Shown: positions 2,883-16,592 of the stretch, in pieces | Layout of the letters: the number at the start of each line of letters is the position of its first letter | Position numbering within the stretch: the first letter of the stretch is position 1 | Source: a virus | Taxonomy: Duplodnaviria > Heunggongvirae > Uroviricota > Caudoviricetes | IMG/VR virus record: IMGVR_UViG_2872169409_000009 | DNA length: 16,592 nt | Strand: one strand, 5' to 3' | Translations under genes and position numbers: made by a program | The notes under the pieces: model-generated | The model's database searches: none | Told to the model about the DNA's origin: nothing | Seen by the model: the letters and a program-made list of their open reading frames with translations, nothing else

Positions 2883-3079
2883 CAATGTCTTTCCTTCTGT
2901 GAATTTTTCTTTGCTATTTAACCGTGATACGACTTAATTTAGGCTTAAACACCTTACATTTACAAGGTACTCCTGTGGGGGGCCCTGCCACGGAGCGTCG
3001 CAGGAGTGAGTGATGAGGAAGAATTAAAGCAACCTATTGTGACAGGCAGCGATAACAGTAAATCACAGGAAGCATAATC

Positions 3080-3844
3080 ATGGCAAAACCGGACTGGGAG
3101 GCCATCGAATCGGCATACCGGGCCGGAGTCCTTAGCCTCCGTGATATAGGCGAGAAATACGGCGTTACAGAAGGGGCTATCAGGAAGAGGGCCAAAAAGC
3201 TTGATTGGGCACGCAGTGGCGGTACGCAGGTTTGCAAAAATGGTACGCAAAAAAGGAAAGTGCGTACCAGCAGAAAGCCTGCCATTACTGGCCTTACACA
3301 AAAAAGTACGCAACTAAAAACAGAATCTACACCGGATACGAAACCGATACGCGGAATGCGTACCGATCCCCCGACTAACCCATTCCAACCCGGTAACCAG
3401 CAGGCATTAAAACACGGTGGTTATGCCCGTCGCCTTCTGCTCAAAGATGAGGTGATAGAGGACGCTAAAGCGTTGACGCTCGAGGACGAATTATTTCGCC
3501 TTCGTGCTAACAACCTTGTCGCTGCAGAGAATATTGGTCGGTGGTTGGTGTCGCTGGAAGATGCTAATGGGGACCAGGAAAGGAAGATGCTGATTGAAAA
3601 TATCAGCGCCGCCGAGAAAGCAATGATGCGCAATACAGTTCGTATTGAGTCCATCGTTGGCACGCTTGCGACGGTAGGAAAAATATTTGCTGATACAGCC
3701 TACCGCAAGGCCGCCACTGATAAGGTGTCTCTGGAGGCTGATCGTCTTCGCCGTGATGCAGGTATTGATGATGGCAATGGAGAGCGTGACCTCAATGACT
3801 TCTACTCTGACATCCAAACCGACGCTGAATCCGGCTTTACGTAG
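3080..3844 (+). CDS. Phage terminase small subunit (N-terminal HTH DNA-binding domain)
   Basis: 254-aa ORF immediately upstream of, and overlapping, the large terminase gene. N-terminus ..GVLSLRDIGEKYGVTEGAIRKRAKKLDW.. is HTH-like. RBS AGGAAG lies 8 nt upstream of ATG 3080. Confidence 0.7.
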   Translation: MAKPDWEAIESAYRAGVLSLRDIGEKYGVTEGAIRKRAKKLDWARSGGTQVCKNGTQKRKVRTSRKPAITGLTQKSTQLKTESTPDTKPIRGMRTDPPTNPFQPGNQQALKHGGYARRLLLKDEVIEDAKALTLEDELFRLRANNLVAAENIGRWLVSLEDANGDQERKMLIENISAAEKAMMRNTVRIESIVGTLATVGKIFADTAYRKAATDKVSLEADRLRRDAGIDDGNGERDLNDFYSDIQTDAESGFT

Positions 3845-4462
3845 TTTCTGGACTATGCGGGCACGTAACAAAGTGCTTTATGGTGGTCGGTCATCGTCAA
3901 AATCATGGGATGCCGCTGGCATTGCCATATTTCTGTCGAATAAATACACCCTGCGTTTTTGTTGTGCCCGTCAGATCCAGAATAAAATCGAAGAGTCGGT
4001 GTATACCCTGCTCAAAATTCAGATAGACAGGTTTGGTCTGCGGCACCGTTTCCGTATTCTGAACAACAAAATCATTAACCGGGTTACTGGCTCGGAATTT
4101 GTTTTTTATGGATTATGGCGCAACATCGAAGAAATTAAGTCACTGGAGGGGATCGATATGTTGTGGCTGGAAGAAGCCCACGCACTGACGGAATACCAGT
4201 GGAAAATTCTGGAGCCAACGATCCGTAAAGAGGGTTCGGAATGCTGGTTCATATTCAACCCCGGACTTGTTACTGATTTCGTCTGGCGCAACTTCGTTGT
4301 TGATCCGCCCGAAGGCACTCTCATCCGCAAAATTAACTATGACGAAAATCCGTTTCTGTCTGACACCATGCTTAAGGTTATCGACGCGGCGCGACGCCGT
4401 GATCCGGATGGTTTTAAACATGTGTATGAGGGCGTTCCGGAGTCTGATGATGATGCGGCAAT
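3795..4462 (+). pseudogene. Terminase large subunit, N-terminal ATPase fragment (interrupted by IS2)
   Basis: Track ORF 3687..4478 contains a Walker A-like motif (VLYGGRSSSKSWDAAG) and ..DMLWLEEAH.. (Walker B-like). The likely real start is ATG 3795, after a GGAG; the TTG at 3687 would overlap terS by 158 nt. The reading frame runs into the IS2 left end at 4463 and terminates at an IS-encoded TGA. Confidence 0.8.
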
Positions 4463-4553
4463 TAGACTGGCCCCCTGAATCTCCAGACAACCAGTATCAC
4501 TTATTTAAGTGATAGTCTTAATACTAGTTTTTAGACTAGTCATTGGAGAACAG

Positions 4554-4919
4554 ATGATTGATGTCTTAGGGCCGGAGAAACGCAGACGGCGTACCACACA
4601 GGAAAAGATCGCAATTGTTCAGCAGAGCTTTGAACCGGGGATGACGGTCTCCCTCGTTGCCCGGCAACATGGTGTAGCAGCCAGCCAGTTATTTCTCTGG
4701 CGTAAGCAATACCAGGAAGGAAGTCTTACTGCTGTGGCCGCCGGAGAACAGGTTGTTCCTGCCTCTGAACTTGCTGCCGCCATGAAGCAGATTAAAGAAC
4801 TCCAGCGCCTGCTCGGCAAGAAAACGATGGAAAATGAACTCCTCAAAGAAGCCGTTGAATATGGACGGGCAAAAAAGTGGATAGCGCACGCGCCCTTATT
4901 GCCCGGGGATGGGGAGTAA
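4554..4919 (+). CDS. insC: IS2 InsC (OrfA, transposition regulator)
   Basis: [56 protein letters not shown]... matches my recollection of IS2 InsC. RBS GGAGAA lies upstream of ATG 4554. Confidence 0.9.
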
Positions 4920-5782
4920 GCTTAGTCAGCCGTTGTCTCCGGGTGTCGCGTGCGCAGTTGCACGTCATTCTCAGACGAACCGATGACTGGATGGATGGCC
5001 GCCGCAGTCGTCACACTGATGATACGGATGTGCTTCTCCGTATACACCATGTTATCGGAGAGCTGCCCACGTATGGTTATCGTCGGGTATGGGCGCTGCT
5101 TCGCAGACAGGCAGAACTTGATGGTATGCCTGCGATCAATGCCAAACGTGTTTACCGGCTCATGCGCCAGAATGCGCTGTTGCTTGAGCGAAAACCTGCT
5201 GTACCGCCATCGAAACGGGCACATACAGGCAGAGTGGCCGTGAAAGAAAGCAATCAGCGATGGTGCTCTGACGGGTTCGAGTTCTGCTGTGATAACGGAG
5301 AGAGACTGCGTGTCACGTTCGCGCTGGACTGCTGTGATCGTGAGGCACTGCACTGGGCGGGGACTACCGGCGGCTTCAACAGTGAAACAGTACAGGACGT
5401 CATGCTGGGAGCGGTGGAACGCCGCTTCGGCAACGATCTTCCGTCGTCTCCAGTGGAGTGGCTGACGGATAATGGTTCATGCTACCGGGCTAATGAAACA
5501 CGCCAGTTCGCCCGGATGTTGGGACTTGAACCGAAGAACACGGCGGTGCGGAGTCCGGAGAGTAACGGAATAGCAGAGAGCTTCGTGAAAACGATAAAGC
5601 GTGACTACATCAGTATCATGCCCAAACCAGACGGGTTAACGGCAGCAAAGAACCTTGCAGAGGCGTTCGAGCATTATAACGAATGGCATCCGCATAGTGC
5701 GCTGGGTTATCGCTCGCCACGGGAATATCTGCGGCAGCGGGCTTGTAATGGGTTAAGTGATAACAGATGTCTGGAAATATAG
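4877..5782 (+). CDS. insD: IS2 InsD (OrfB, DDE transposase; expressed as the InsCD fusion via -1 frameshift at A6G 4871..4877)
   Basis: 301-aa ORF in the -1 frame relative to insC, with ..[11 protein letters not shown].. and a C-terminal ..[12 protein letters not shown].. motif. An A AAA AAG run sits at the orfA/orfB overlap. Confidence 0.85.
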
Positions 5783-5794
5783 GGGCAAATCCAG

Positions 5795-6527
5795 CAATCA
5801 TCAAACTGTCTTGGATAGAAGCCGCAGTGGATGCGCACAAAACGTTAAATTTCGAACCCAGTGGAAGAAAGCGTATTGGCTTTGACGTGGCTGACAGTGG
5901 TACAGATAAGTGCGCTAACGTTTACCGTCACGGATCCGTTGTTTTCTGGGCCGACGAATGGAAGGCCAAAGAAGATGAATTACTGAAGAGCTGCCAGCGT
6001 ACTTATCAGGCGGCGCTGGAGCGTGAAGCAGATATTGTTTACGACTCTATCGGTGTTGGTGCGTCTGCCGGTGCTAAATTCTCTGAAATTAACGCTGACC
6101 GGAAGAGCGAGAACGCATACGCGCGACGTGTGAATTACCAGAGGTTTAACGCCGGTGCTGGTGTGCATGAGCCAGATGACGAGTACAACGGCATCCCCAA
6201 CAAAGACTTTTTCGCAAATCTTAAGGCTCAGGCATGGTGGCTGACCGTTTCAGAAATACGTTTAACGCCATTAACAACGGAGAACAGTATCCTGTGGATG
6301 AGCTGATCAGCATAGATTCTCGTTGTCCGTTGCTTGAAAAGCTGAAACTGGAACTGACAACACCTCATCGTGATTTCGACCGTAACGGACGTGTGATGGT
6401 CGAAAGTAAAAAAGACCTCGCAAAACGCGAGATACCGTCACCAAACGTTGCTGATGCATTCATTATGGCCTTCGCGCCAATCGATACATCGCTGGATATC
6501 TGGGAACAGCTGGGGAGACAGGCCTGA
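5795..6527 (+). pseudogene. Terminase large subunit, C-terminal (nuclease) fragment; carries an additional frameshift near 6238..6243
   Basis: Removing IS2 and one copy of GCAAT restores the frame from 4462 into ..AAIIKLSWIEAAVDAHKTLNF..IGFDVADSGTDK... Track ORFs 5767..6306 and 6234..6527 are two overlapping frames of the same protein. Stop TGA overlaps the portal ATG (ATGA) at 6524..6527. Confidence 0.8.
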
Positions 6528-7993
6528 TGGCACGAAACAAACAAGCCCTGCGGCGAACTGTGCAGGCCACAGCTGATGGTTATGAGAATTTTATTGCCCG
6601 AGTAGGGATGCAGACACCTAACCAGCACTCAGCATCCACCTACCGGGCTAATTTCACCAGTCGTAACCGCATGCTGGTGGAATGGTCCTATCGTTCATCC
6701 TGGATCATCGGCGAAGCAGTCGATGCTATCCCGGATGATATGACCCGCAAAGGCATTCGCATCACTTCGGAAATTGATGCAAAAGATCGTGGCATTCTCG
6801 AATCACAACTGGATGAGTTGCAAATCTGGGATGCGCTGAATGACGTGCTGAAATGGTCGCGCCTCTACGGCGGCGCGGTGGGTTTCATCATGATTGAGGG
6901 GCAGGCACCAATGACCCCGCTGCGACCCGAAACCATCGGTAAGGGCAAGTTTAAGGGGATTCTCCCGCTCGACCGCTGGATGGTCGACCCGGCACTGACC
7001 CGCCGCATTAAAGATATGGGGCCGGACCTGGGTAAACCTGAGTTTTACGATGTGGTGACCACAGCAACGGGAATTCCTGCCTGGCGCATTCATCACAGTC
7101 GCCTGATTCGCTTTGATGGCGTCACGTTGCCATTTCAGCAGAAGATGACCGAGAACGAATGGGGAATGTCGGTTGTAGAGCGTATCTGGGATCGTCTTAC
7201 CGCGTTCGACAGCGCTACTGTCGGCGCGGCGCAGCTGGTCTACAAGGCGCATTTGCGTACCTACAGCGTGGAGAAGCTACGCGAGCTTATCGCACTTGGT
7301 GGTCCTGCGTATGAAGCGTTGCTGAAGAATATCGACCTGATTCGACAGTTCCAGAGTAATGAAGGCATGACGCTCATGGACTCGCGGGATAAGTTTGAAA
7401 CCCATCAGTACAGCTTCAGTGGTCTGGATGACATCCTTTCGCAGTTTGCAGAACAGATTAGTGGCGCTGTTGGTATCCCACTGGTGCGGTTGTTCGGACA
7501 GTCCCCGAAAGGATTTTCTACCGGTGATGCAGACCTTGCCAACTATTACGATCGCATCAGTTCGTTGCAGGAGAGGCGTTTACGTCTTCCGGTGCGGCGG
7601 ATACTGGACATCATGCATCGTTCGGAACTTGGCAAGCCGCTGCCGGACGATTTCACGTTTGAGTTTAACCCGCTCTGGCAAATGTCTGATGTCGATCGCT
7701 CAACGGTGGCGTTAAACACCACCAACGCAATCAGTACGGCGCTGGGTGATGGTCTGATGACACTGAAAGCCGCTATGACTGATTTGCGAGAAAATTCTGA
7801 CGTAACCGGCATAGGGGCATCCATTACCAACGAGGACATCGAGAATGCCGAAGATGAAGCGCCGCCCGGCATCGGCGAACCTGATGACGAACCGCAGGAG
7901 CCGTCAGGCGGAAATCCGGTATCGAACCAGCCTACGCAGGATAGCGAGGGCGGTCGGAGACATCGTAAATGGTCGCTACGATGGTTCAAATGA
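6527..7993 (+). CDS. Phage portal protein
   Basis: 488-aa ORF directly after the terminase genes with an acidic C-terminal tail (..EDEAPPGIGEPDDEPQEP..). Size and position are typical of portal proteins; family assignment (DUF1073-like) is from memory. Confidence 0.75.
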   Translation: MARNKQALRRTVQATADGYENFIARVGMQTPNQHSASTYRANFTSRNRMLVEWSYRSSWIIGEAVDAIPDDMTRKGIRITSEIDAKDRGILESQLDELQIWDALNDVLKWSRLYGGAVGFIMIEGQAPMTPLRPETIGKGKFKGILPLDRWMVDPALTRRIKDMGPDLGKPEFYDVVTTATGIPAWRIHHSRLIRFDGVTLPFQQKMTENEWGMSVVERIWDRLTAFDSATVGAAQLVYKAHLRTYSVEKLRELIALGGPAYEALLKNIDLIRQFQSNEGMTLMDSRDKFETHQYSFSGLDDILSQFAEQISGAVGIPLVRLFGQSPKGFSTGDADLANYYDRISSLQERRLRLPVRRILDIMHRSELGKPLPDDFTFEFNPLWQMSDVDRSTVALNTTNAISTALGDGLMTLKAAMTDLRENSDVTGIGASITNEDIENAEDEAPPGIGEPDDEPQEPSGGNPVSNQPTQDSEGGRRHRKWSLRWFK

Positions 7994-8627
7994 CAGTATC
8001 ACGGAAATTATTGCGGCGCTGGAGCGTTACAGTGAAATCATCACCCCCTGGGCGACAAAGGTCGCGGAAAACTTTACTGCGGACCTAACCCGGCAGAACG
8101 AGAAAGTTTGGCGGCAACACAGCAAGAACATCAGTCGCGAGCTCCGCAATCTTGTGGAAAGCGCTCCTGTGGGCCAGGTGATGCAATCCATCATCGCCGA
8201 ACAGGTCAAGTACATCAAATCTCTGCCTCTCGAGGCCGCAGACAGGGTGTACGACATCCAGAACAAAGCGATAGAGGCTGTTGTCACCGGTGGTCGGGCG
8301 GAGCAGTTTGCTAAAGAGATTGCATCTACCGGCGATGTTGCTAAGTCTAGGGCCGATCTGATTGCCCGAACGGAACTGGGAAGAGCAACGGGCGCGCTGG
8401 ATATGGCCCGAGCGATAGCTATTGGCTCGGATGGTTATATTTGGCGTACAGCCGATGATGGCGATGTCCGAGATTCCCACGATCACATGAAAGGTAAATT
8501 CGTCCGCTGGGATTCACCTCCAACTTTGGACGGCATGACCGGCCACGCGGGCGAGCTGCCAAACTGCCGCTGCTATAAAGAGATCGTGTTTGTTCGCGTT
8601 CCATTCGCAATGAAAAGGGCAGCATAA
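7845..8627 (+). CDS. Head morphogenesis protein (Mu gpF / SPP1 gp7 family); start uncertain, overlaps the portal 3' end
   Basis: 260-aa ORF with a conserved ..WRTADDGDVRDSHDHMKGKFVRWD.. core typical of Mu F-like minor head proteins. Candidate ATG starts at 7845, 7854 and 7884 all lie inside the portal ORF. Confidence 0.7.
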   Translation: MPKMKRRPASANLMTNRRSRQAEIRYRTSLRRIARAVGDIVNGRYDGSNDSITEIIAALERYSEIITPWATKVAENFTADLTRQNEKVWRQHSKNISRELRNLVESAPVGQVMQSIIAEQVKYIKSLPLEAADRVYDIQNKAIEAVVTGGRAEQFAKEIASTGDVAKSRADLIARTELGRATGALDMARAIAIGSDGYIWRTADDGDVRDSHDHMKGKFVRWDSPPTLDGMTGHAGELPNCRCYKEIVFVRVPFAMKRAA

Positions 8628-8630
8628 CCC

Positions 8631-9410
8631 ATGAAATACTTTTTTGAGACCAGGCTCGGGGAAACCCGATACCGCCTGGCTGACGGCTCGTTGCTGTGCA
8701 AAGACGTGCCGATAGGACGAACAGGTAAGCAGCTCTATGGTGCTGATGACCTGCCAAAACTGAAACCCGATAAGTTCGTTGAAATAGTCGTCACGCGTTC
8801 TCCTGAGCAGGTATTCCATCCGGCCACGCTTGCCTCATTCGAAGGGATGAGCATCACGATCCTGCATCCTGAAGATGAAAACGGGAATGTGCGGCTGGTA
8901 AATCCCGAGAACTGGAAAGTGCTTGCTGTCGGGCACCTCCAGAATGTCCGGCGCGGGACGGGTGAGCAGTCTGATTTGATGCTGGCTGACCTTATCGTCA
9001 AAGACGAAAGCGCCATTCAGCTTATCGAAGATGGCCTGCGCGAAGTGTCGTGCGGCTATGACGCGGAGTACGAGCAGACCGAGCCAGGTAAAGCCGAGCA
9101 GGTCGATATTACCGGAAACCATGTGGCTCTTGTCCCTAAAGGCAGAGCCGGAAATCGTTGTGCAATTGGAGACAGAGACACAATGGCAAATCAAAAGAAA
9201 AACTGGTGGAACCGCATGCGTGCGGCCATCAAGACAGGAGATGCCGACACCATGAACGAACTGGTGGAGTCGGCTCCCGCATCGGTTACAGGAGATGAGG
9301 GGGATTTGCCGCAGGGCGTTAATCTCAACATCAACCTGTCCCCGCAGCAACCACTACCGGACAAAGCACCAGAGATGGGCGGAGATCCAACCGGCGACAG
9401 TGATGATGAC
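8631..9410 (+). pseudogene. Putative capsid scaffolding/protease-like head protein, 5' part (gene interrupted by IS600 copy 1)
   Basis: ORF 8631..9413 terminates at a TGA formed by the first bases of IS600. Its frame resumes after the IS at 10675 and runs to 11118, giving a ~407-aa protein with an acidic, low-complexity linker. Function is inferred from position between the head morphogenesis and capsid genes. Confidence 0.6.
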
Positions 9411-9453
9411 TGAGGTGTACTGGCAATAGCGGACACTACCATTTGTTCTTTTT

Positions 9454-10272
9454 TTAAGCAGCCATCTGATGATATTTTTCCCTGAAGGCTGCCGGGGAGA
9501 TATTCCCCAGACGAGAGTGACGACGCTGACGATTGTAGAAAATCTCAATGTATTCCCGTATTACTGAGATGGCTTCATCCCGGTTATTAAAACGATAGTG
9601 GCTCAGGCTCTCATTTTTCAGCGTTCCCCAGAAGCTTTCCATCGGAGCGTTGTCGTAACAGTTACCTTTACGCGACATTGATGTTTTCAGACCAGACTGC
9701 TCCTGTATGACCCGGTAATCGTATGCGCAGTACTGTGAACCTCGATCAGAGTGGTGGATTAGCCCGGCAGGTGGGCGCTGGCTCCTGAGCGCCATAAACA
9801 GGGCTTTACCTGTCAGCTCTTTTGTCATGCGCTCTCCCATGGCGTAGCCGACAATTTCACACGTATAAACATCTTTGATGCCAGCGAGGTACAACCATCC
9901 CTCCTGTGTGGCAACATACGTCAGGTCCGCCACCCAGACCTGATTTGGTGCTGTAGGAGCGAACGTCTGGTTCAGCAGATTTGGCGCAACTGGCAGATTG
10001 TGGTTCGGGTTCGTAGTCGCTCTGAACTTGCGTTTCTGCTTACAGCGTAGCCTTAGCTCCTTACGAAGACGTGCCAGTCGGTCACGACCAACGATGATGC
10101 CATTCTCTGCCAGCTCCGTCTGGAGCCGCCGGGTTCCATATGTTTCGCGAGTGCGGATATGTGCCACCTTAATCTCCAGTTTTAGCCGCTCATCACTTTG
10201 TTTTCTGTCTGAGGGTTCATGCTGTACCCAGTTGTAATAACCGCTCCTGGATACACCAAATACCTGACACAT
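9454..10272 (-). CDS. IS600 OrfB transposase (copy 1; -1 frame relative to OrfA)
   Basis: 272-aa DDE transposase (..HHSDRGSQYCA.., ..RKGNCYDNAPMESFWGTLKNE..) matching my recollection of IS600 OrfB. Confidence 0.85.
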   Translation of the reverse strand: MCQVFGVSRSGYYNWVQHEPSDRKQSDERLKLEIKVAHIRTRETYGTRRLQTELAENGIIVGRDRLARLRKELRLRCKQKRKFRATTNPNHNLPVAPNLLNQTFAPTAPNQVWVADLTYVATQEGWLYLAGIKDVYTCEIVGYAMGERMTKELTGKALFMALRSQRPPAGLIHHSDRGSQYCAYDYRVIQEQSGLKTSMSRKGNCYDNAPMESFWGTLKNESLSHYRFNNRDEAISVIREYIEIFYNRQRRHSRLGNISPAAFREKYHQMAA

Positions 10273-10307
10273 CGCTTCAATAGGAAATTGTTGTCGCCAT
10301 TGTTCGA

Positions 10308-10610
10308 TTAACGCGTATTTTTCAGCGACTCCTGTGCAAAATACGCTGTTGCTTTTTTTAATATATCTCGCTCAAGGCGAGCTTCATTTAACGCCTTACG
10401 CAGTTGCAGAATTTCAGATTCCAGTTCAGCCAGCGTGCGGGAACCAGGAGTACCGAGCCCTTTTCTGGCGGCGGTAACCCATTGTCCTAAAGTGCCTTCA
10501 GGAAGAGATAATCGGGAAGCGCCTTCACTGATCGAAAGTTGATTTTCAAGAACCGTTCTGACAGCTTCGGCTTTGAACTCTTTAGAGTAACGTTGGGTTT
10601 TTCTGCTCAT
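10308..10610 (-). CDS. IS600 OrfA (copy 1)
   Basis: MSRKTQRYSKEFKAEAVRTVLENQLSISEGASRLSLPEGTLGQWV... is an IS3-family OrfA; it ends just after an A7G slippery run (minus strand, about 10353..10360). Confidence 0.85.
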   Translation of the reverse strand: MSRKTQRYSKEFKAEAVRTVLENQLSISEGASRLSLPEGTLGQWVTAARKGLGTPGSRTLAELESEILQLRKALNEARLERDILKKATAYFAQESLKNTR

Positions 10611-10674
10611 TATTAGCTCCTTCTGATGCCATTCTATTTCAGGAAGGAGTGTCCGTTAAACTCAGGCTACCTCA

Positions 10675-11118
10675 GACCTCAAAACATTACTGAAAGCCCT
10701 GCTGGCTAAGCTGGAAAGAAATGCCACGGGCGATAACGATAATAAGCCTGACGATAATCCGACCGGTGACGGCGAGGACGATGAAGAGGAAACCACGATT
10801 ACTGGTGACTCAGCCTGGCGTGCCGAAGTTATCGTTCCGGGTATCGATCTGAGCCGTAAGATGAAACCGACCGCGTTCAAACGCGAGGTTCTGGCTTCTG
10901 CTGACAAAACGCTGGTTCGCCAGATAGTCGGTGATGCGGATATCCGCAAATTACCGAAACAATCGGTCGACATGGCGTTTAATGCCGTGTCTGAGGTTGC
11001 CAAAGGGCGAAACACCCGCGCCACCACCGGCGATGCACAGCGCCTAAACATGGGCATGACCAGTATCGCTTCCCTGAACAAACAAAACGCTGAATTCTGG
11101 GCAAACCGTAAAGGGTAA
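10675..11118 (+). pseudogene. 3' part of the IS600-interrupted scaffold/protease-like head gene
   Basis: Same reading frame as 8631..9410 once the IS and one GAC copy are removed: ..LKTLLKALLAKLERNATGDNDNKPDDNPTGDGEDDEEE..MKPTAFKREVLASADK..AEFWANRKG*. Confidence 0.6.
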
Positions 11119-11121
11119 AAA

Positions 11122-11611
11122 ATGAATAATGTATTTCTGTACCGGATGCCTGTTGGCATTGCCGGGGCTGTCTCTCGCCCGCAGGACTTAACCGTCGAAC
11201 CGGTGGTCCTTAAATCCGATAACGCCTTCGCTGCCTATGGCCTGGCTGGTAAATACGATGATGACGGTTTTTTCGTGCCGCTGGCAGATGGTGATACCGC
11301 AGACAAGGTGAAGGGGATCTACGTGCGCCCTTATCCGACCACGTCGCAGCCGGACATGGTTCGCCAGGTGGGAACAGGCAAGAACTTCCCGGGCGACGCC
11401 ATGAAGCGTGGCTACGTGACCGTTAATCTCGGTTCTGATTTTGATGCCAGCACTATCAAAAAAGGCGATCTCCACTGATGAATCCATCAAAGTGCCTCTG
11501 GGTGGATTCATGTCCACGTCAGTCAGTGGCAAAAACGTGGTGCTGACCAACGCTGAATTCACAGGTGCCGGTGATGCTGACGGCAATGCAGAAATTTCCT
11601 GGAAGATTTAA
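11122..11611 (+). pseudogene. Small phage head protein (possible decoration or head-stabilisation protein) with an apparent frameshift in an A6 tract
   Basis: ORF 11122..11478 (118 aa) stops at TGA, but the next frame continues with clearly protein-like sequence (..ESIKVPLGGFMSTSVSGKNVVLTNAEFTGAGDADGNAEISWKI*) up to 11611. The frame change maps to the A6 run at 11458..11463. Confidence 0.45.
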
Positions 11612-11622
11612 GGAACAGACGA

Positions 11623-12564
11623 ATGATTACTTTTGATCAGGCAACCGTTGACAGCTCTGGTGCCTTTCTCATCGGGGAGCTGGAGAGACTCGACCAGACG
11701 CTGAACCTGCCACTGGTGGGGTACACCTGGAGCCGCGATATTCAACTGCGTGAAGACGCCTCCATCGCAGATGACATTTCCAGCTGGACGAATACCAGCT
11801 TCGCCGCTGCGGGTACTGGCGCAAATCCGAATGGAAAAAACTGGGTAGGCAAAGACTCAACCGCTATTGCTGGCGTGAACGTGGATATCGGCAAATCCGG
11901 TAACCCGCTGAACCTGTGGGGGATGGAACTTGGCTGGACGGTCATAGAATTGCAGGCTGCTCAGCAGGTCGGCCGCCCGATTGATACGCAGAAGTATGAC
12001 GGTATGCAACTGAAATGGCAGATGGATAACGATGAACAGGTATATGTTGGCGATTCCGCATTAAACCTGAAAGGCCTTGTTACCCTGGACGGCGTGCCTG
12101 TCAACAACGCTGCCAAAACGTGGGCAACCTCAACACCGGACGAAATCCGCGCAAGCATTAACCAGGTGCTGTCTGATGCGTGGGCCGCTTCTGGTTACTC
12201 TGTGGTTCCGCGTGATTTGCTGATCCCGCCTGAGCAGTTTGCTCTGTTGTCCAGCATCATCGTTTCATCTGCAGGTAACCAGTCCCTGTTGACGAACCTT
12301 CAGACCAACACCATCAGCTATCACCAGAACGGTGTTCCGCTGAATATCCGCGCGGTTAAATGGCTGAAAGGCCGTGGTGTGGGGAATAAGGATCGCATGG
12401 TTGCGTACACCAACGATAAAAAATACGTCCGCTACCCGCTGGTTCCGCTTCAGAGCGTGCCGGTGCAGTATCGCGGTCTGTATCAGATCGTCACTTACTA
12501 CGGCAAGCTGGGTGCAGTCGAGCCAGTGTACAAAGAAACCATTTCGTACGTTGATGGCATTTAA
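11623..12564 (+). CDS. Major capsid protein
   Basis: 313-aa ORF with a strong RBS (AAGGA), located after the scaffold and decoration-like genes, and followed by a GC-rich hairpin. Its composition and size fit a major capsid protein; I recall it as DUF2184-type but cannot verify that here. Confidence 0.7.
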   Translation: MITFDQATVDSSGAFLIGELERLDQTLNLPLVGYTWSRDIQLREDASIADDISSWTNTSFAAAGTGANPNGKNWVGKDSTAIAGVNVDIGKSGNPLNLWGMELGWTVIELQAAQQVGRPIDTQKYDGMQLKWQMDNDEQVYVGDSALNLKGLVTLDGVPVNNAAKTWATSTPDEIRASINQVLSDAWAASGYSVVPRDLLIPPEQFALLSSIIVSSAGNQSLLTNLQTNTISYHQNGVPLNIRAVKWLKGRGVGNKDRMVAYTNDKKYVRYPLVPLQSVPVQYRGLYQIVTYYGKLGAVEPVYKETISYVDGI

Positions 12565-12571
12565 CAGCCAC

Positions 12572-12592
12572 ATGGCCCCCTGGCGGGGCCAT
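12572..12592 (+). other. GC-rich hairpin (8-bp stem ATGGCCCC/GGGGCCAT, 5-nt loop) directly after the capsid gene; possible transcript-stability or attenuator element, no U-tract
   Basis: A perfect inverted repeat is visible in the sequence 8 nt after the capsid stop codon. Confidence 0.35.
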
Positions 12593-12605
12593 TAAGGATG
12601 ACCCG

Positions 12606-12804
12606 ATGGCAAAAAATGATGCAGTAATACACGTACATACCCCGTTTGTGCTCACGCTTCCCGACGGTTCTCGGCGCGAGTTTGTTAAAGGCCGTCATGT
12701 TGTGGAGGAAGACGTTGCCACGCACTGGTTCACTCGTGCGCACGCGGAAGTATCCGTTGGCAAAGCCACAGACGCGCGTAACGAGGTAAAAAATGCCAAA
12801 GAAT
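12606..12804 (+). pseudogene. Phage head-completion/adaptor-like gene, 5' fragment (about 66 codons) truncated by IS600 copy 2
   Basis: ATG 12606 is preceded by AAGGATG. The ORF MAKNDAVIHVHTPFVLTLPDGSRREFVKGRHVVEEDVATHWF.. runs into the IS600 end at 12805. Function is inferred from position only. Confidence 0.45.
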
Positions 12805-12847
12805 TGAGGTGTACTGGCAATAGCGGACACTACCATTTGTTCTTTTT

Positions 12848-13666
12848 TTAAGCAGCCATCTGATGATATTTTTCCCTGAAGGCTGCCGGGGAGATATTCC
12901 CCAGACGAGAGTGACGACGCTGACGATTGTAGAAAATCTCAATGTATTCCCGTATTACTGAGATGGCTTCATCCCGGTTATTAAAACGATAGTGGCTCAG
13001 GCTCTCATTTTTCAGCGTTCCCCAGAAGCTTTCCATCGGAGCGTTGTCGTAACAGTTACCTTTACGCGACATTGATGTTTTCAGACCAGACTGCTCCTGT
13101 ATGACCCGGTAATCGTATGCGCAGTACTGTGAACCTCGATCAGAGTGGTGGATTAGCCCGGCAGGTGGGCGCTGGCTCCTGAGCGCCATAAACAGGGCTT
13201 TACCTGTCAGCTCTTTTGTCATGCGCTCTCCCATGGCGTAGCCGACAATTTCGCACGTATAAACATCTTTGATGCCAGCGAGGTACAACCATCCCTCCTG
13301 TGTGGCAACATACGTCAGGTCCGCCACCCAGACCTGATTTGGTGCTGTAGGAGCGAACGTCTGGTTCAGTAGATTTGGCGCAACTGGCAGATTGTGGTTC
13401 GGGTTCGTAGTCGCTCTGAACTTGCGTTTCTGCTTACAGCGTAGCCTCAGCTCCTTACGAAGACATGCCAGTCGGTCACGACCAACGATGATGCCATTCT
13501 CTGCCAGCTCCGTCTGGAGCCGCCGGGTTCCATATGTTTCGCGAGTGCGGATATGTGCCACCTTAATCTCCAGTTTTAGCCGTTCATCACTTTGTTTTCT
13601 GTCTGAGGGTTCATGCTGTACCCAGTTGTAATAACCGCTCCTGGATACACCAAATACCTGACACAT
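12848..13666 (-). CDS. IS600 OrfB transposase (copy 2)
   Basis: 272 aa, identical to copy 1 except R67C (..RDRLACLRKEL..). Confidence 0.85.
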   Translation of the reverse strand: MCQVFGVSRSGYYNWVQHEPSDRKQSDERLKLEIKVAHIRTRETYGTRRLQTELAENGIIVGRDRLACLRKELRLRCKQKRKFRATTNPNHNLPVAPNLLNQTFAPTAPNQVWVADLTYVATQEGWLYLAGIKDVYTCEIVGYAMGERMTKELTGKALFMALRSQRPPAGLIHHSDRGSQYCAYDYRVIQEQSGLKTSMSRKGNCYDNAPMESFWGTLKNESLSHYRFNNRDEAISVIREYIEIFYNRQRRHSRLGNISPAAFREKYHQMAA

Positions 13667-13701
13667 CGCTTCAATGGGAAATTGTTGTCGCCATTGTTCG
13701 A

Positions 13702-14004
13702 TTAACGCGTATTTTTCAGCGACTCCTGTGCAAAATACGCTGTTGCTTTTTTTAATATATCTCGCTCAAGGCGAGCTTCATTTAACGCCTTACGCAGTTG
13801 CAGAATTTCAGATTCCAGTTCAGCCAGCGTGCGGGAACCAGGAGTACCGAGCCCTTTTCTGGCGGCGGTAACCCATTGTCCTAAAGTGCCTTCAGGAAGG
13901 AATAATCGGGAAGCGTCTTCACTGATCGAAAGTTGATTTTCAAGAACCGTTCTGACAGCTTCGGCTTTGAACTCTTTAGAGTAACGTCGGGTTTTTCTGC
14001 TCAT
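13702..14004 (-). CDS. IS600 OrfA (copy 2)
   Basis: MSRKTRRYSKEFKAEAVRTVLENQLSISEDASRLFLPEG...; differs from copy 1 at three residues. Confidence 0.85.
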   Translation of the reverse strand: MSRKTRRYSKEFKAEAVRTVLENQLSISEDASRLFLPEGTLGQWVTAARKGLGTPGSRTLAELESEILQLRKALNEARLERDILKKATAYFAQESLKNTR

Positions 14005-14068
14005 TATTAGCTCCTTCTGATGCCATTCTATTTCAGGAAGGAGTGTCCGTTAAACTCAGGCTATCTCA

Positions 14069-15700
14069 ATAAACCGTGCTGTGTAACTGCTGTGGATCAA
14101 ATCTGACCACAACTTTTTTCACTCCGGCATTCATTAATGCCATGTTGTAATAAACGTTTTTCGCGCCTTTAAGGGAGCCGCCAACTTTAAGCGTAAACTC
14201 GCCTTTGCGTGAAACGTTCACCGCCTCGGCAGGCAGTAACAGCATCCGTTTTTGTTCTTCGGTTGGCTTACGCACAATCGTTCTGGCGTATTCACGCTCG
14301 AAAACATCATCAAACGAGAGTTTGCCCCCGCACATTTCTGTTTCACGGCCTGTTCTGGCATTGAACATCGCCACACCTTCGGCAAAGGTTTTCAGAAACA
14401 GCTCTGCATCAACAGCGTGGTCGCCATAGTTATCAGGTTTTGCCTGCGGATTTGGCCCCGTATATGCGCCAGCCAGTGCCGGATGCTTATCAACGTATTC
14501 CTCAAGCCCACCAACACCGAAAGCACGTTCAACAGGTTTTGCCTGGCCCCAGCCTTTACCGGCAACAACGCTTGTCCAGTGCATTTTCGCACCCATCAGT
14601 AAAAACAGTCCTTTTGGATCGTCCTCTTTTACCTTAAAGCGGTAGCGATTGGGCGCGCCTCCCGTCAGCCATTTATTCGCAGCACCACGGGTGTTATCAA
14701 TGGTGATGTGAAAATCCTCCGGGATACTGTAGCGAGTCACAACATCCATGAACGAGAGGCGAATTGAATCAATGTTCTTGCTCACATCGCAGCGCCAGCC
14801 CAGAATTTTTCGGGTTTTCACATCCTGCCAGAACCATGTTTTCGGACGGATCACATCACCGTTAAACCAGCGTACAAAGACGTTATGCAGATAACCGTCG
14901 CCGTTGATCCACTGCATGGCGTCCAGGTGTTCCACAGTTCGCTGCTGTGCCGGTATCAGATGCATCAGTGCATGTTCACCTTCACGACAGGCAACAACCA
15001 TTGCCTCGTCCAGTTGCTGAATCCGGCGAAAGGCCGTGGCACGGGAGGGAATACTCCAGCCATGCTCGCGGACTGCCAGTTCCAGACGCTCATAACATTT
15101 GCGGAAGGCGGGTTTTTCCGGTCGCAGATAATCTGCAATCAGAAACTGCCAGGCATCCTCGTCAAATTCACTTTTGTGAACATTGCGACGGGATGCTCCA
15201 CGTCCATCAACAAGTGCAGCCGCCCAGTCAGGCTTCGCAAACTTCTGTACCTGGTAATACTTGTCCCGCAAAGTGGATGCGCTGACCTGGTAATGCCCTG
15301 CAACGGTCGCAAAAGCCGTTTTCGTTGAAATCCCCTGGTTCAGCATTTCGTCTGTGGCCTGAATTGAGGGCAACCATTTTTCAGCCAGGCTGCGCTGGGA
15401 ATCGCTGGCTTTATCCCATTTGCTCCATAGTACCTCACGATCATAATCATGAGCTTCCAGCGTGGGGCGGGCGATTTCAAAACATCCCTGACTGGTTTTA
15501 AATTTTCCTTGTTGGAGCAAAACTTCAGCTCGAGCAATGTTAGGAAGAGAAGATATATGGTATTCGTAAGCAACCCCTCTAATTCCTTCTCTTCTTCTCT
15601 TGAGCCATCCTTCTCTCTGAGCTCTTTTGTGAACCCCCATTAATGAACCAGGTAAACCAGATAAACCCATGCATTCAATTGCTGATATCCACTCTCTCAT
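14069..15700 (-). pseudogene. A: Mu/D108-like transposase A, 3'-truncated after codon 544 by IS600 (C-terminal domain III missing)
   Basis: 544-aa ORF ..[109 protein letters not shown].. is near-identical to my recollection of phage Mu MuA across the core. The N-terminal ~60 residues diverge, as in D108. The ORF ends ..PQQLHSTVY and its stop codon is provided by the IS600 terminus. Confidence 0.9.
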
Positions 15701-15929
15701 TGTGATCCCTTAGATATCTACTAGGCCAAATTTCCTCAGGTTTCATGTTTAAGGCGTCAGCAATAATGCGTTCACCTTTAGGCCATGGCCTGACTAATGC
15801 ATTTGCAAGCGTCCCGGTTGAATAACCTGAACGTCTGGACAATTTTGCCAGAGGGGTTCCTGTTTTTTTGAGGGCCGCAATCACGTCGGCCCGATGCCAA
15901 TCGTTACTCATCTTTCGCACACCAACCAT
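15675..15929 (-). CDS. ner: Ner-like early transcriptional regulator (Mu/D108 Ner, Nlp family)
   Basis: ..[56 protein letters not shown].. matches the Ner/Nlp signature. Lies immediately upstream of A and overlaps the A start by 26 nt. Alternative ATG start at 15911. Confidence 0.8.
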
Positions 15930-16082
15930 ATTGCGTATGATAAAGGGTTACCAAAACAAATAATTCGTCTTGATTATCTGTTTTATACATTACCAAATAA
16001 ACAAAACTGGTTTATATCAGTTAATGTGGTTTATTTTGTAATCCATTGATTTTTATATAGATAAATCTGGTAAACTTAGTTT
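15930..16082. promoter_or_regulatory. Divergent early operator/promoter region between ner (leftward) and c (rightward) with repeated TTACCAAA / TGGTTTAT / TGGTAAAC motifs
   Basis: 153-bp AT-rich intergenic region between divergently transcribed c and ner. TTACCAAA at 15948 and 15990, TGGTTTAT at 16008 and 16027, inverse TGGTAAAC at 16068. By analogy with the Mu O1-O3 operators and the Pe/Pc promoters. Confidence 0.5.
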
Positions 16083-16592
16083 ATGAAAAGCGCAAATGAG
16101 ATAAACCAGTGGATGACACCCAAACAAATTACTGAACTGGATGGAATGCCAGGGACAATACAGGGGGTGCATAAACGAGCAAAGAAAGAAGGATGGCCGA
16201 AGCGTTCACAAGAAGGGCGTCGCGGGCCTGGGGTTGAATATATCCCGGCAATACCGGCTATGCAAAAAATTGCTATCGAAGAAATGAATGCTGATACATT
16301 GAAAATGTTCTCCCTGTTAATCAATAAACTAGGAGAAAATGAAGTCCGAGAGATAGAGCTAAACATGGCTAAATATGGGCTTTCCGGATTAATGCAAGAA
16401 CGCCCCTCCATCTCCGTTGACACCCTATTGGCAACGCTGGGTATTGATCGCCAAACACTACAAACAGCTTTGGCGCTGCATAAATTACCTCCAGAAACTC
16501 GCCAAGAGATTTTGTCAATGTATGGTGTTCATAAACAGGAAGAGCCTGTAGCTCCTTTGTTGGAACCACAAGATGCGAAAAAAGCCGTATAA
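16083..16592 (+). CDS. c: Mu/D108-like c repressor (Repc)
   Basis: 169-aa ORF whose N-terminal domain (..DGMPGTIQGVHKRAKKEGWPKRSQEGRRGPGVEY..) parallels the A N-terminal domain (..[34 protein letters not shown]..). C-terminus ..EILSMYGVHKQEEPVAPLLEPQDAKKAV resembles the Mu repressor C-terminus (..QEPQEVKKAV). Transcribed divergently from ner. Confidence 0.85.
   Translation: MKSANEINQWMTPKQITELDGMPGTIQGVHKRAKKEGWPKRSQEGRRGPGVEYIPAIPAMQKIAIEEMNADTLKMFSLLINKLGENEVREIELNMAKYGLSGLMQERPSISVDTLLATLGIDRQTLQTALALHKLPPETRQEILSMYGVHKQEEPVAPLLEPQDAKKAV

Follow-up and report, generated by a model that had tools for sequence, protein, structure and literature searches.

The left end of phage Mu (AF083977) carries the repressor gene c, ner and the transposase gene A, and the annotations of D108, SfMu and PhiR68_1 give the same order. 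In the Mu transposase, MuA, subdomain IIIα is needed for assembly and cleavage, and subdomain IIIβ contacts MuB and ClpX (PMC3362531). SfMu is close to D108 in its regulators, with c and Ner proteins 89% and 98% identical to those of D108, and Mu-related remnants have been inferred by hybridisation in many Shigella flexneri strains, where PCR for a SfMu-type c-ner region was negative (PMC4406740).

Here we describe a Mu-type locus in a window of 16,592 nucleotides (the whole stretch of DNA analysed), which is an exact substring of S. flexneri CP026792.1 (the source genome). As in the IS-eroded cryptic prophages of Shigella and the ‘SfMu remnants’, a prophage fragment is bounded here by an insertion sequence in an IS-rich mosaic, in this case containing IS600, IS2 and IS911. 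We consider it highly probable, taking the explanation as a whole, that the region is a one-ended relic, the left end of a Mu-type (Muvirus) prophage in the S. flexneri chromosome, which was inserted in dpiA, was cut back in an IS600-associated rearrangement and may retain some residual activity of c. No description of an attL-c-ner-A′ relic in dpiA was found in the searchable literature on Shigella, phage Mu, dpiA/citB and dcuC, apart from the general statement on remnants in the SfMu paper.

A Mu-type left end in dpiA

The ORF map and Pfam matches place c divergent from a ner-A operon, with a short operator region between them, and together with attL, which lies just beyond the window, c, ner and truncated A (A′) are collinear with Mu, in agreement with the gene order claimed in the earlier note. 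The repressor gene c (16083..16592, + strand) encodes 169 amino acids, with an N-terminal winged-helix domain and a C-terminal tail ending in PQDAKKAV. It is separated from ner by a putative regulatory region (15912..16082), interpreted by alignment with six relatives. On the − strand, ner can be read as an 84-amino-acid ORF (15675-15929) or as 78 amino acids (15675..15911) from the ATG at 15911 that is used by relatives; its 3′ end and the start of A share 26 nt, an arrangement also found in intact relatives. The A′ fragment, also on the − strand (14066-15700 including the stop codon; coding 14069..15700), has 544 amino acids and spans subdomains Iα, Iβ, Iγ, IIα and part of IIβ. No structured RNA was matched by Rfam in 13900-16592 at E ≤ 0.1.

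A left end had been predicted a few hundred bp to the right of the window, and a Mu-type end is indeed present in CP026792.1, 337 bp out and 96.2% identical to Mu bases 1-338. Matches to the MuA-site consensus occur at the positions and spacing of L1, L2 and L3, and the sequence closes with the terminal CA of a Mu end (...TGAATCAATACA), directly followed by host DNA. Together, attL and the 3′ end of c are 92-97% identical to Mu. The relic is inserted in dpiA, and its flank corresponds to dpiA-dcuC in 5416 of 5426 E. coli genomes. We suggest that a Mu-type prophage entered this host gene in an ancestor from which the sampled S. flexneri strains descend.

Besides gene order and orientation, the relic shares with Mu the A core, attL, L1-L3, the c tail (...KKAV) and the homology between c and subdomain Iα of A. 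It differs in that the immunity cassette (0.96 kb) has been replaced, c has 169 amino acids against 196 in Mu, ner carries 12 extra C-terminal residues and the 26-nt overlap with A, and A stops at Mu residue 545, with no B and nothing further to attR.

A rare immunity cassette

Using blastn breakpoints against Mu, D108, SfMu and PhiR68_1 together with 100-nt sliding identity, we delimited a divergent immunity cassette at 15521..16483, comprising A codons 1 to ~60, ner, the regulatory region and c codons 1 to ~134. Mu-like sequence flanks it on both sides; the A core (window 14069-15520) is 97.6% identical to Mu at the DNA level, and the A core of D108 and SfMu, which have the same architecture, shows 97% DNA identity to the relic. 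Within the cassette, c is 38% identical to its counterpart in Mu, 33% to that in D108 (28-30% by tblastn) and 37% to that in PhiR68_1, and ner is 68% identical to Mu and 54% to D108. Residues 1-75 of A are 47% identical to Mu and 51% to D108 (47-51% across Mu, D108 and PhiR68_1). These values set the relic apart from the Mu-type immunity group and equally from the D108-type group, and the BLAST-type comparison proposed in the earlier note went against its own suggestion of D108-like immunity. SfMu differs from the relic as D108 does, in c (33%), ner (54%) and attL (~80%).

The only other carriers of this cassette that were encountered are intact Mu-like prophages, in E. coli UMNF18 and in Salmonella enterica, at 85-96% DNA identity. 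Judged by residues 1-75 of c (91%), Ner (99%), residues 1-75 of A (85%) and common repeat positions, the relic would belong to a UMNF18/Salmonella-type immunity group, which is defined in the present analysis and unnamed in the literature. These prophages (L005, L014, L015 and L017) have the same immunity type and c length, a near-identical DNA-binding domain, the overlap of ner with A and the same placement of ATAAACCAG-type repeats. Unlike the relic, they are complete, with an A of 662 aa followed by B, kil, gam and further genes, and they occupy other chromosomal sites; their regulatory region has a perfect 13-bp palindrome and an extra 9 bp, both lacking in the relic, and their attL is only ~80% identical to that of the relic, which is Mu-like. 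In the 50,697 deposited phage genomes, no c exceeded 36% identity in the summarised search, the individual comparisons with c of Mu and PhiR68_1 giving 38% and 37%. The cassette is a separate and rare immunity type, represented in 1 of 5426 complete E. coli genomes and in none of the deposited phage genomes. The negative PCR with SfMu c-ner primers in S. flexneri fits the presence of a different immunity cassette in the relic.

The c protein matches Pfam HTH_Tnp_Mu_1 (4.5e-12) and the DNA-binding domain of the Mu repressor (PDB 1g4d, 2e-10). Its winged-helix domain (PF02316) recurs at the N terminus of A′ (6.7e-43), both proteins match PDB 1g4d and 1tns, and the two N termini are identical at 24 of 59 positions, compared with 26 of 64 for the same pair in Mu. 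A relationship between the DNA-binding domain of c and subdomain Iα of A had been proposed from the window alone and is borne out by these matches. The motif given for it, GVHKRAK.EGW, is right for c (GVHKRAKKEGW) and off by one residue for A, the shared form being GVHKRA[KQ][KR]EGW.

As the earlier note had it, the c and ner frames are full-length, with lengths that agree with those of intact prophage relatives. Relative to these, c shows 85-87% identity and no private change in residues 6-55, and Ner (Pfam HTH_35, 5e-29) matches its counterpart in the UMNF18 and Salmonella prophages at 77 of 78 residues, the lone change being I19T. The dN/dS values of c (about 0.2) and ner (0.03) are low, mostly as a record of the history of the prophage before its death, and do not demonstrate present constraint. 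The exact c protein is present in 6687 blocks of an assembly index, S. flexneri wherever checked, with eight places returned, including S. flexneri CP000266; in at least one S. flexneri assembly (P0005), c is frameshifted through its DNA-binding domain.

Truncation of the transposase at IS600

A′ aligns with residues 1-545 of the 663 residues of Mu A, with 493 of 544 positions identical and 118 C-terminal residues gone, close to the ~120 estimated previously; the description of A as a dead, C-terminally truncated transposase was well founded. Pfam matches cover HTH_Tnp_Mu_1, HTH_Tnp_Mu_2 and DDE_2 (5e-134), and the catalytic triad is kept in subdomain IIα (D268, D335 and E391, corresponding to Mu D269, D336 and E392). 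Retention of the catalytic core, as stated earlier, is supported by these residues, but the loss is not confined to domain III as had been supposed and begins inside subdomain IIβ. Mu-transpos_C is matched only at profile positions 1-50 of 61, the match to PDB 4fcy stops at chain residue 469 of 529 (60 residues of the construct absent) and that to PDB 1bcm stops at 298 of 327 (29 residues absent). A′ is missing the last part of the IIβ barrel together with the whole of domain III, and so does not have all the features of a functional MuA.

An in-frame continuation of A, which would have overturned the earlier account of a truncation, was absent from the window and from 21.6 kb of the source locus. 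Searches with Mu A residues 540-663, MuB and Mu bases 2950-4500 (tblastn and blastn against the window and this part of the source genome) gave no match (E > 0.1), and attR, the 3′ part of A and the B gene were not found within the same 21.6 kb. The locus in this interval is therefore without the two ends (attL and attR) and MuB of a transposition-competent Mu element. On published MuA biochemistry, the element would be unable to transpose or replicate, because subdomains IIIα and IIIβ and the right end are missing. A′ also appears to be under relaxed constraint: its core has 11 nonsynonymous and 4 synonymous private changes, against 5 and 19 in five intact relatives (Fisher p = 0.002), and three further nonsynonymous changes are found in A′ of the source strain.

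The homology to Mu stops at 14068, where the end of an IS600 copy (12805..14068, − strand, 1264 bp; orfA 13702-14004 and orfB 12848-13666, with Pfam HTH_Tnp_1 and rve) abuts A codon 544. The junction reads ...GGCTATCTCA|ATAAACCGT, and the other IS600 copy in the window ends in ...GGCTACCTCA. The terminal TCA of the element, TGA on the − strand (14066..14068), serves as the stop codon of A′. This copy has no 3-bp target duplication (flanks AAT and ATA), whereas the second copy (9411-10674), which differs at 11 of 1264 positions, has a GAC duplication on both sides. To the left of the 12805-14068 copy lie head genes of a vB_EcoM-689R2/SEN34-like phage unrelated to Mu; the two flanks come from unrelated phages and lack the direct duplication of a simple insertion of this IS3-family element. 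The junction between IS600 and A is identical in all nine S. flexneri places examined (eight loci and the source genome). Neither the IS600 junction nor its missing target duplication features in the earlier note.

We propose that an IS600-associated rearrangement removed everything past A codon 544 and joined the relic to an unrelated, likewise decayed prophage. The deletion possibly arose by an IS600 adjacent deletion or by recombination of two IS600 copies, perhaps with inversion, and other parts of the genome could still hold what is left of the prophage.

Changes in the regulatory region

Three ATAAACCAG-type repeats (15978-15986, 16007-16015 and 16026-16034) lie in the region between ner and c at positions kept in relatives. 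The repeat motif occurs 13 times in the window against 3.2 expected, and 8 of the 13 occurrences fall within 15643-16332. CTAAGT-type Ner sites of Mu have no counterpart near ner when the Mu and window spacers are set side by side, so a Ner site cannot be assigned by homology. The scan for promoters and terminators did not exceed shuffled expectation (3 found, 2.4 expected); TTCGCA-16-TATGAT (15914-15941, + strand) is a weak pointer to a c promoter. No evident Shine-Dalgarno sequence precedes the c ATG, but intact relatives have the same weak context for ribosome binding and the same c start region (GGTAAACTTAGTTTATGAAA), and both are therefore native features.

Substitutions ‘private’ to the cassette were at one stage considered as evidence of decay and were dropped as unpolarised, the Shigella copy being the outlier of six sequences. 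Changes were retained as derived only where they were polarised by the outgroup sequence L016. In the alignment with six relatives, 9 bp are deleted between 15991 and 15992 in every Shigella copy, with the loss of one ATAAAC repeat, and two substitutions degrade a 13-bp palindrome (15953-15965 and 15972-15984) that is perfect in all intact relatives. The −35-like hexamer has changed from TTCACA to TTCGCA in the Shigella copies, and the −10-like TATGAT is kept. Two extra polymorphisms, at 16003 and 16008, occur among S. flexneri strains. Given the derived deletion and the changes in the palindrome and −35-like hexamer, repression or c expression may already be impaired. What had been called an intact operator keeps its remaining repeats, and its intactness is doubtful in view of the deletion and substitutions in conserved elements.

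Discussion

Read from sequence, c and ner have full-length frames and appear unaltered at conserved DNA-binding positions. If any activity remains, it is most likely that c binds ATAAAC(CAG)-type repeats in the c-ner spacer and near the start of its own gene, which would keep the early promoter of ner and A′ shut. The block would extend only to superinfecting Mu-like phages that share this immunity type, and such residual immunity would be a by-product of incomplete decay, not a selected function. The locus is an ordinary prophage relic, and its sole unusual point is the rare repressor (immunity) type.

The relic could instead be a wholly inert wreck in which c and ner are no longer expressed or regulating and their open frames await inactivation. 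The deletion, broken palindrome and weakened −35-like hexamer in the c-ner spacer speak for this, as do the lack of an evident Shine-Dalgarno sequence at c, promoter-like sites that are not above chance and the IS elements that riddle the surrounding region. We hold it to be somewhat unlikely, since the start context of c is equally weak in intact relatives, the other repeats and the −10-like TATGAT are kept, and neither coding sequence has a disabling change. Selection for c, and perhaps ner, as a domesticated module conferring immunity to Mu-like phages of the same type, or regulating host genes, seems to us quite unlikely. The intact frame and wide occurrence of the exact c protein would suit it, but clonal inheritance can explain that spread. 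Residues 6-55 of c are free of private changes while A′ gathers nonsynonymous ones; the strains compared nevertheless differ by too few changes in these two genes for constraint to be detected (c has a single synonymous change and ner has none, with ~1.2 and 0.6 expected at the rate of the relic). Homoimmune prophages do occur in E. coli and Salmonella, yet their type is rare, c is frameshifted in P0005 and the regulatory region carries a derived deletion and substitutions. A further reading, to which we give only a slight chance, sees in the relic an uncharacterised heteroimmune Mu-family group beside Mu, D108/SfMu and PhiR68_1, with c kept for standing immunity or host regulation and the operator changes as an adaptive rewiring by which c expression is freed from Ner and lytic control.

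Two other readings concern A. The gene may be split, not truly truncated, if an IS600-mediated inversion relocated the remainder of the prophage, including the 3′ part of A, within the chromosome; the missing target duplication is the expectation for a recombinant IS600 copy, and hybridisation in the SfMu paper suggests further Mu remnants in many S. flexneri strains (PMC4406740). This is unlikely, as neither the window nor 21.6 kb of the source genome holds anything Mu-like past codon 544, and even with the remainder elsewhere, A would still be interrupted and the relic still without a right end. It is very improbable indeed that A′ serves as a trans-dominant inhibitor that binds Mu ends and the enhancer and poisons the assembly of transpososomes by Mu-like phages that enter the cell, whatever their immunity type. 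A′ keeps Iα, Iβ, Iγ and the DDE core, and the end-binding region has at least 97% DNA identity to Mu, D108 and SfMu, but constraint on A′ appears relaxed, with the excess of nonsynonymous changes continuing in the source strain, and NCBI pipelines often give A′ no protein call. With its IIβ β-barrel 29 residues short of the crystallised domain, misfolding is likely (PMC3362531), and if c works, the early promoter driving A′ would be off.

The reading that we prefer, a one-ended relic in which c may have some residual activity, bears first on annotation. An entry for this locus should describe the remains of a Mu-like prophage in dpiA whose transposase is a pseudogene truncated by IS600, and should not suggest a possibly active element. 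Its insertion inactivated dpiA, which encodes a citrate-responsive response regulator. The IS600 event is an example of IS elements welding prophage wrecks together in Shigella. For the Mu family, c, ner, the Iα-coding part of A and the operator are another case of a 1-kb unit swapped en bloc between otherwise near-identical Mu genomes, and if the repressor is still made, the locus would offer a simple example of superinfection immunity encoded by a relic.

Structure and insertion site of the relic

Three genes at the right end of the window are arranged in the order and orientation of the phage Mu left end: a truncated Mu-type transposase gene (A′, 14066-15700, − strand, a 544-codon ORF), the small helix-turn-helix regulator gene ner (15675-15929, − strand) and the repressor gene c (16083-16592, + strand, a 169-codon ORF), with a spacer of ~150-170 bp between ner and c. 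Pfam placed A′ in the Mu transposase families HTH_Tnp_Mu_1 (residues 9-141), HTH_Tnp_Mu_2 (148-255) and DDE_2 (256-472, 5e-134), Ner in HTH_35 and c in HTH_Tnp_Mu_1; c also matched the solved structures 1g4d (the Mu repressor DNA-binding domain, 2e-10) and 1tns (MuA subdomain Iα). The N-termini of c and A′ are identical at 24 of 59 positions (26 of 64 in Mu itself), and the motif that the earlier note saw in both is real, reading GVHKRAKKEGW in c, with one residue of the pattern misquoted.

Shigella flexneri CP026792.1, the genome matching the exact A′ protein, contains at least the last 12 kb of the window without a mismatch. The final base of the window is that of the c stop codon, and this point lies in mid-chromosome, at no contig end. 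The 337 bases that follow in CP026792.1 are 96.2% identical to Mu bases 1-338, match the MuA-site consensus RAARYRCGAAAR where sites L1, L2 and L3 should lie, and have the Mu terminus (...CTTCAAGTGAATCAATACA) at their end. Host DNA comes directly afterwards: the 3′ part of dpiA and then dcuC, neighbours by annotation in 5416 of the 5426 complete E. coli genomes. These Mu-like bases, with their L1-L3 sites and adjoining host DNA, bear out the prediction of an attL beyond the window, and dpiA is the insertion site of the prophage. The neighbouring dcuC (7005-8389 of the source-genome locus L019, outside the window) is split into two ORFs of 257 and 213 aa in CP026792.1, but in other genomes of the species it is a single gene of 461 aa; the two-ORF form is probably a frameshift pseudogene in that strain. 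The exact c protein occurred in 6687 blocks of a public assembly index, with S. flexneri 8401, CP000266 among the eight places listed.

Truncation and decay of the transposase

A′ aligns to residues 1-545 of the 663 in Mu A, with 118 residues missing. Its last Mu-derived codon is TAT at 14069-14071, and an IS600 copy (12805-14068) supplies the stop codon with its terminal TCA (TGA on the − strand). The Pfam Mu-transpos_C match covers only positions 1-50 of 61, and matches to the Mu transpososome chain 4fcy and the core domain 1bcm stop at residues 469 of 529 and 298 of 327, respectively. The catalytic DDE residues are present (D268, D335, E391). The earlier note had assigned the loss to domain III, all of which is indeed gone; the loss is larger, with A′ stopping 29 residues short of the end of crystallised domain II. 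In MuA, no insertions are tolerated in the IIβ β-barrel or subdomain IIIα, IIIα is critical for structural transitions of the transpososome, and IIIβ is the contact region for MuB and ClpX (PMC3362531). The absence of the end of domain II and of all of domain III therefore gives good support to the view that transposition has been lost. The missing right end alone would be enough to abolish transposition, and the element is immobile.

Searches of the window and of 21.6 kb of the source genome gave no match to Mu A residues 540-663, MuB or Mu bases 2950-4500. The truncating IS600 has no 3-bp target duplication (flanks AAT and ATA); a second copy (9411-10674) has GAC on both sides, a clean target duplication. 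The junction between IS600 and A is common to all nine S. flexneri places examined, so the event is old relative to those strains; it may have arisen by an IS600 adjacent deletion, or by recombination between two IS600 copies, possibly with inversion. The second copy, which splits a DUF2213/Pa193_gp24-type head gene, is missing from eight other S. flexneri loci and is thus a recent, strain-specific insertion.

Private changes over the 471 core codons of A′ number 11 nonsynonymous and 4 synonymous, compared with 5 and 19 for five intact relatives together (Fisher p = 0.002), and where A′ of this strain departs from that of other S. flexneri strains (14779, 15072 and 15432), all three changes are nonsynonymous. 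By this substitution pattern A′ behaves like a pseudogene. A dominant-negative role is unlikely, because A′ has decayed and its β-barrel is cut.

This strain and the eight other S. flexneri genomes show 0-6 differences across ~4.6 kb of head genes (4816-9410; 0-4 in seven of the eight) and at least 14 across the next 5.9 kb (10675-16592). Of the latter, seven fall within the truncating IS600 and six within the Mu relic; apart from the three in A′, the relic has two in the spacer (16003 and 16008) and a synonymous one in c (16151). Gene conversion among IS600 copies could be the source of only the IS part of these clustered differences.

The adjoining prophage

No Mu DNA lies left of the truncating IS600. 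The + strand there carries head genes that belong to an unrelated type of phage; they share 95% identity with vB_EcoM-689R2 and are related to Salmonella phage SEN34 as well. These genes are broken by IS2 and IS600, with the IS2 ORFs (4509-5782) splitting the terminase large subunit, and adjoin a putative lambda-type integrase (1-804, − strand). The integrase is truncated by IS911 (ORFs at 798-2002), and a 170-aa membrane-protein ORF lies at 2373-2885 (− strand). The last ~10 codons of an 81-aa ORF of phrog_6497 (unknown function; 12606-12851) are replaced by read-through into the IS600 end, and the left flank of IS600 is thus the very 3′ end of that phage gene.

A rare immunity cassette

On the basis of blastn breakpoints and sliding identity, we delimited a divergent cassette of ~0.96 kb (15521-16483), comprising A codons 1 to ~60, ner, the spacer and c codons 1 to ~134. 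Identities to Mu, D108 and PhiR68_1 are 38%, 33% and 37% for c, 68%, 54% and 54% for Ner, and 47%, 51% and 49% for A residues 1-75; the D108-like immunity proposed earlier does not hold. Intact Mu-like prophages of E. coli UMNF18 and Salmonella enterica have cassettes with 85-96% DNA identity to that of the relic (c 85-87%, Ner 77/78 and A residues 1-75 85% identical). They occupy other chromosomal sites, have a 662-aa A along with B, kil and gam, and look like phages that are alive or were until recently.

The cassette flanks are Mu-like, with an A core 97.6% identical and a c 3′ end (from 16484) and attL that are Mu/PhiR68_1-like (92-97%), whereas the homoimmune UMNF18 prophage shares only 73-92% identity with the relic in these last two segments, indicating that the cassette has recombined into different Mu backbones. 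The immunity type is rare: the cassette type was present in one of 5426 complete E. coli genomes, a protein search returned ten relatives only, and no c more than 36% identical was found among 50,697 deposited phage genomes. The SfMu paper (PMC4406740) used PCR and Southern blot to infer Mu-related remnants in many strains of S. flexneri, on which its SfMu-type (D108) c-ner primers did not work, as would fit the different cassette of the relic.

Regulatory sites and residual function

Spacer changes were called between all Shigella copies and all intact relatives and polarised using L016, a more distant relative. A 13-bp inverted repeat with a 6-bp spacer, AAAACAGATAATC-N6-GATTATCTGTTTT (15953-15984), has two mismatches (11/13) in all Shigella copies and none in the E. 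coli and Salmonella prophages or any relative. In L016, compensatory change on both arms keeps the symmetry, which argues for a dimer binding site, and the palindrome is a good candidate for a Ner or repressor site of this immunity type. All Shigella copies also lack 9 bp (GTCACATAA) between 15991 and 15992, and have TTCGCA as the −35-like hexamer upstream of c, compared with TTCACA in relatives. The 9-mer ATAAACCAG (≤1 mismatch) occurs 13 times in the window against 3.2 expected, with eight sites within 15643-16332 and several position-conserved in relatives; the repeats are candidate repressor or enhancer sites. One of them is taken out by the 9-bp deletion.

The spacer is less well preserved than c and ner. 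The relic c has the length of c in intact prophages, zero private amino-acid changes in its DNA-binding core (residues 6-55) and a Mu-like C-terminal tail; Ner has a single difference, I19T, at a position variable between immunity types, and the 12 extra residues at its C-terminus and the 26 nt that ner shares with A are normal features of this type. dN/dS relative to intact relatives is low (~0.2 for c, 0.03 for ner), and this mostly reflects history before prophage death. A variant c in the S. flexneri assembly P0005 (NCBI, 86-kb contig) has its DNA-binding helix region altered by a compensated frameshift (…GQYRGCINEQRKKDGRSVHKKGVAGLGFKY…), which reflects either an error in sequencing or a lineage with c already inactivated.

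If still made, c would bind the remaining repeats, keep the early promoter off and shut out only phages that share this rare immunity type. Some residual repressor activity is an even prospect. A fully inert wreck is possible and rather less probable. Real selection for immunity or regulation is improbable.

In Shigella, prophages are normally eroded by IS elements. The novelty here is small: the exact anatomy of the relic, dpiA::attL-c-ner-A′::IS600, and the recognition of its immunity cassette as distinct from those of Mu, D108/SfMu and PhiR68_1.
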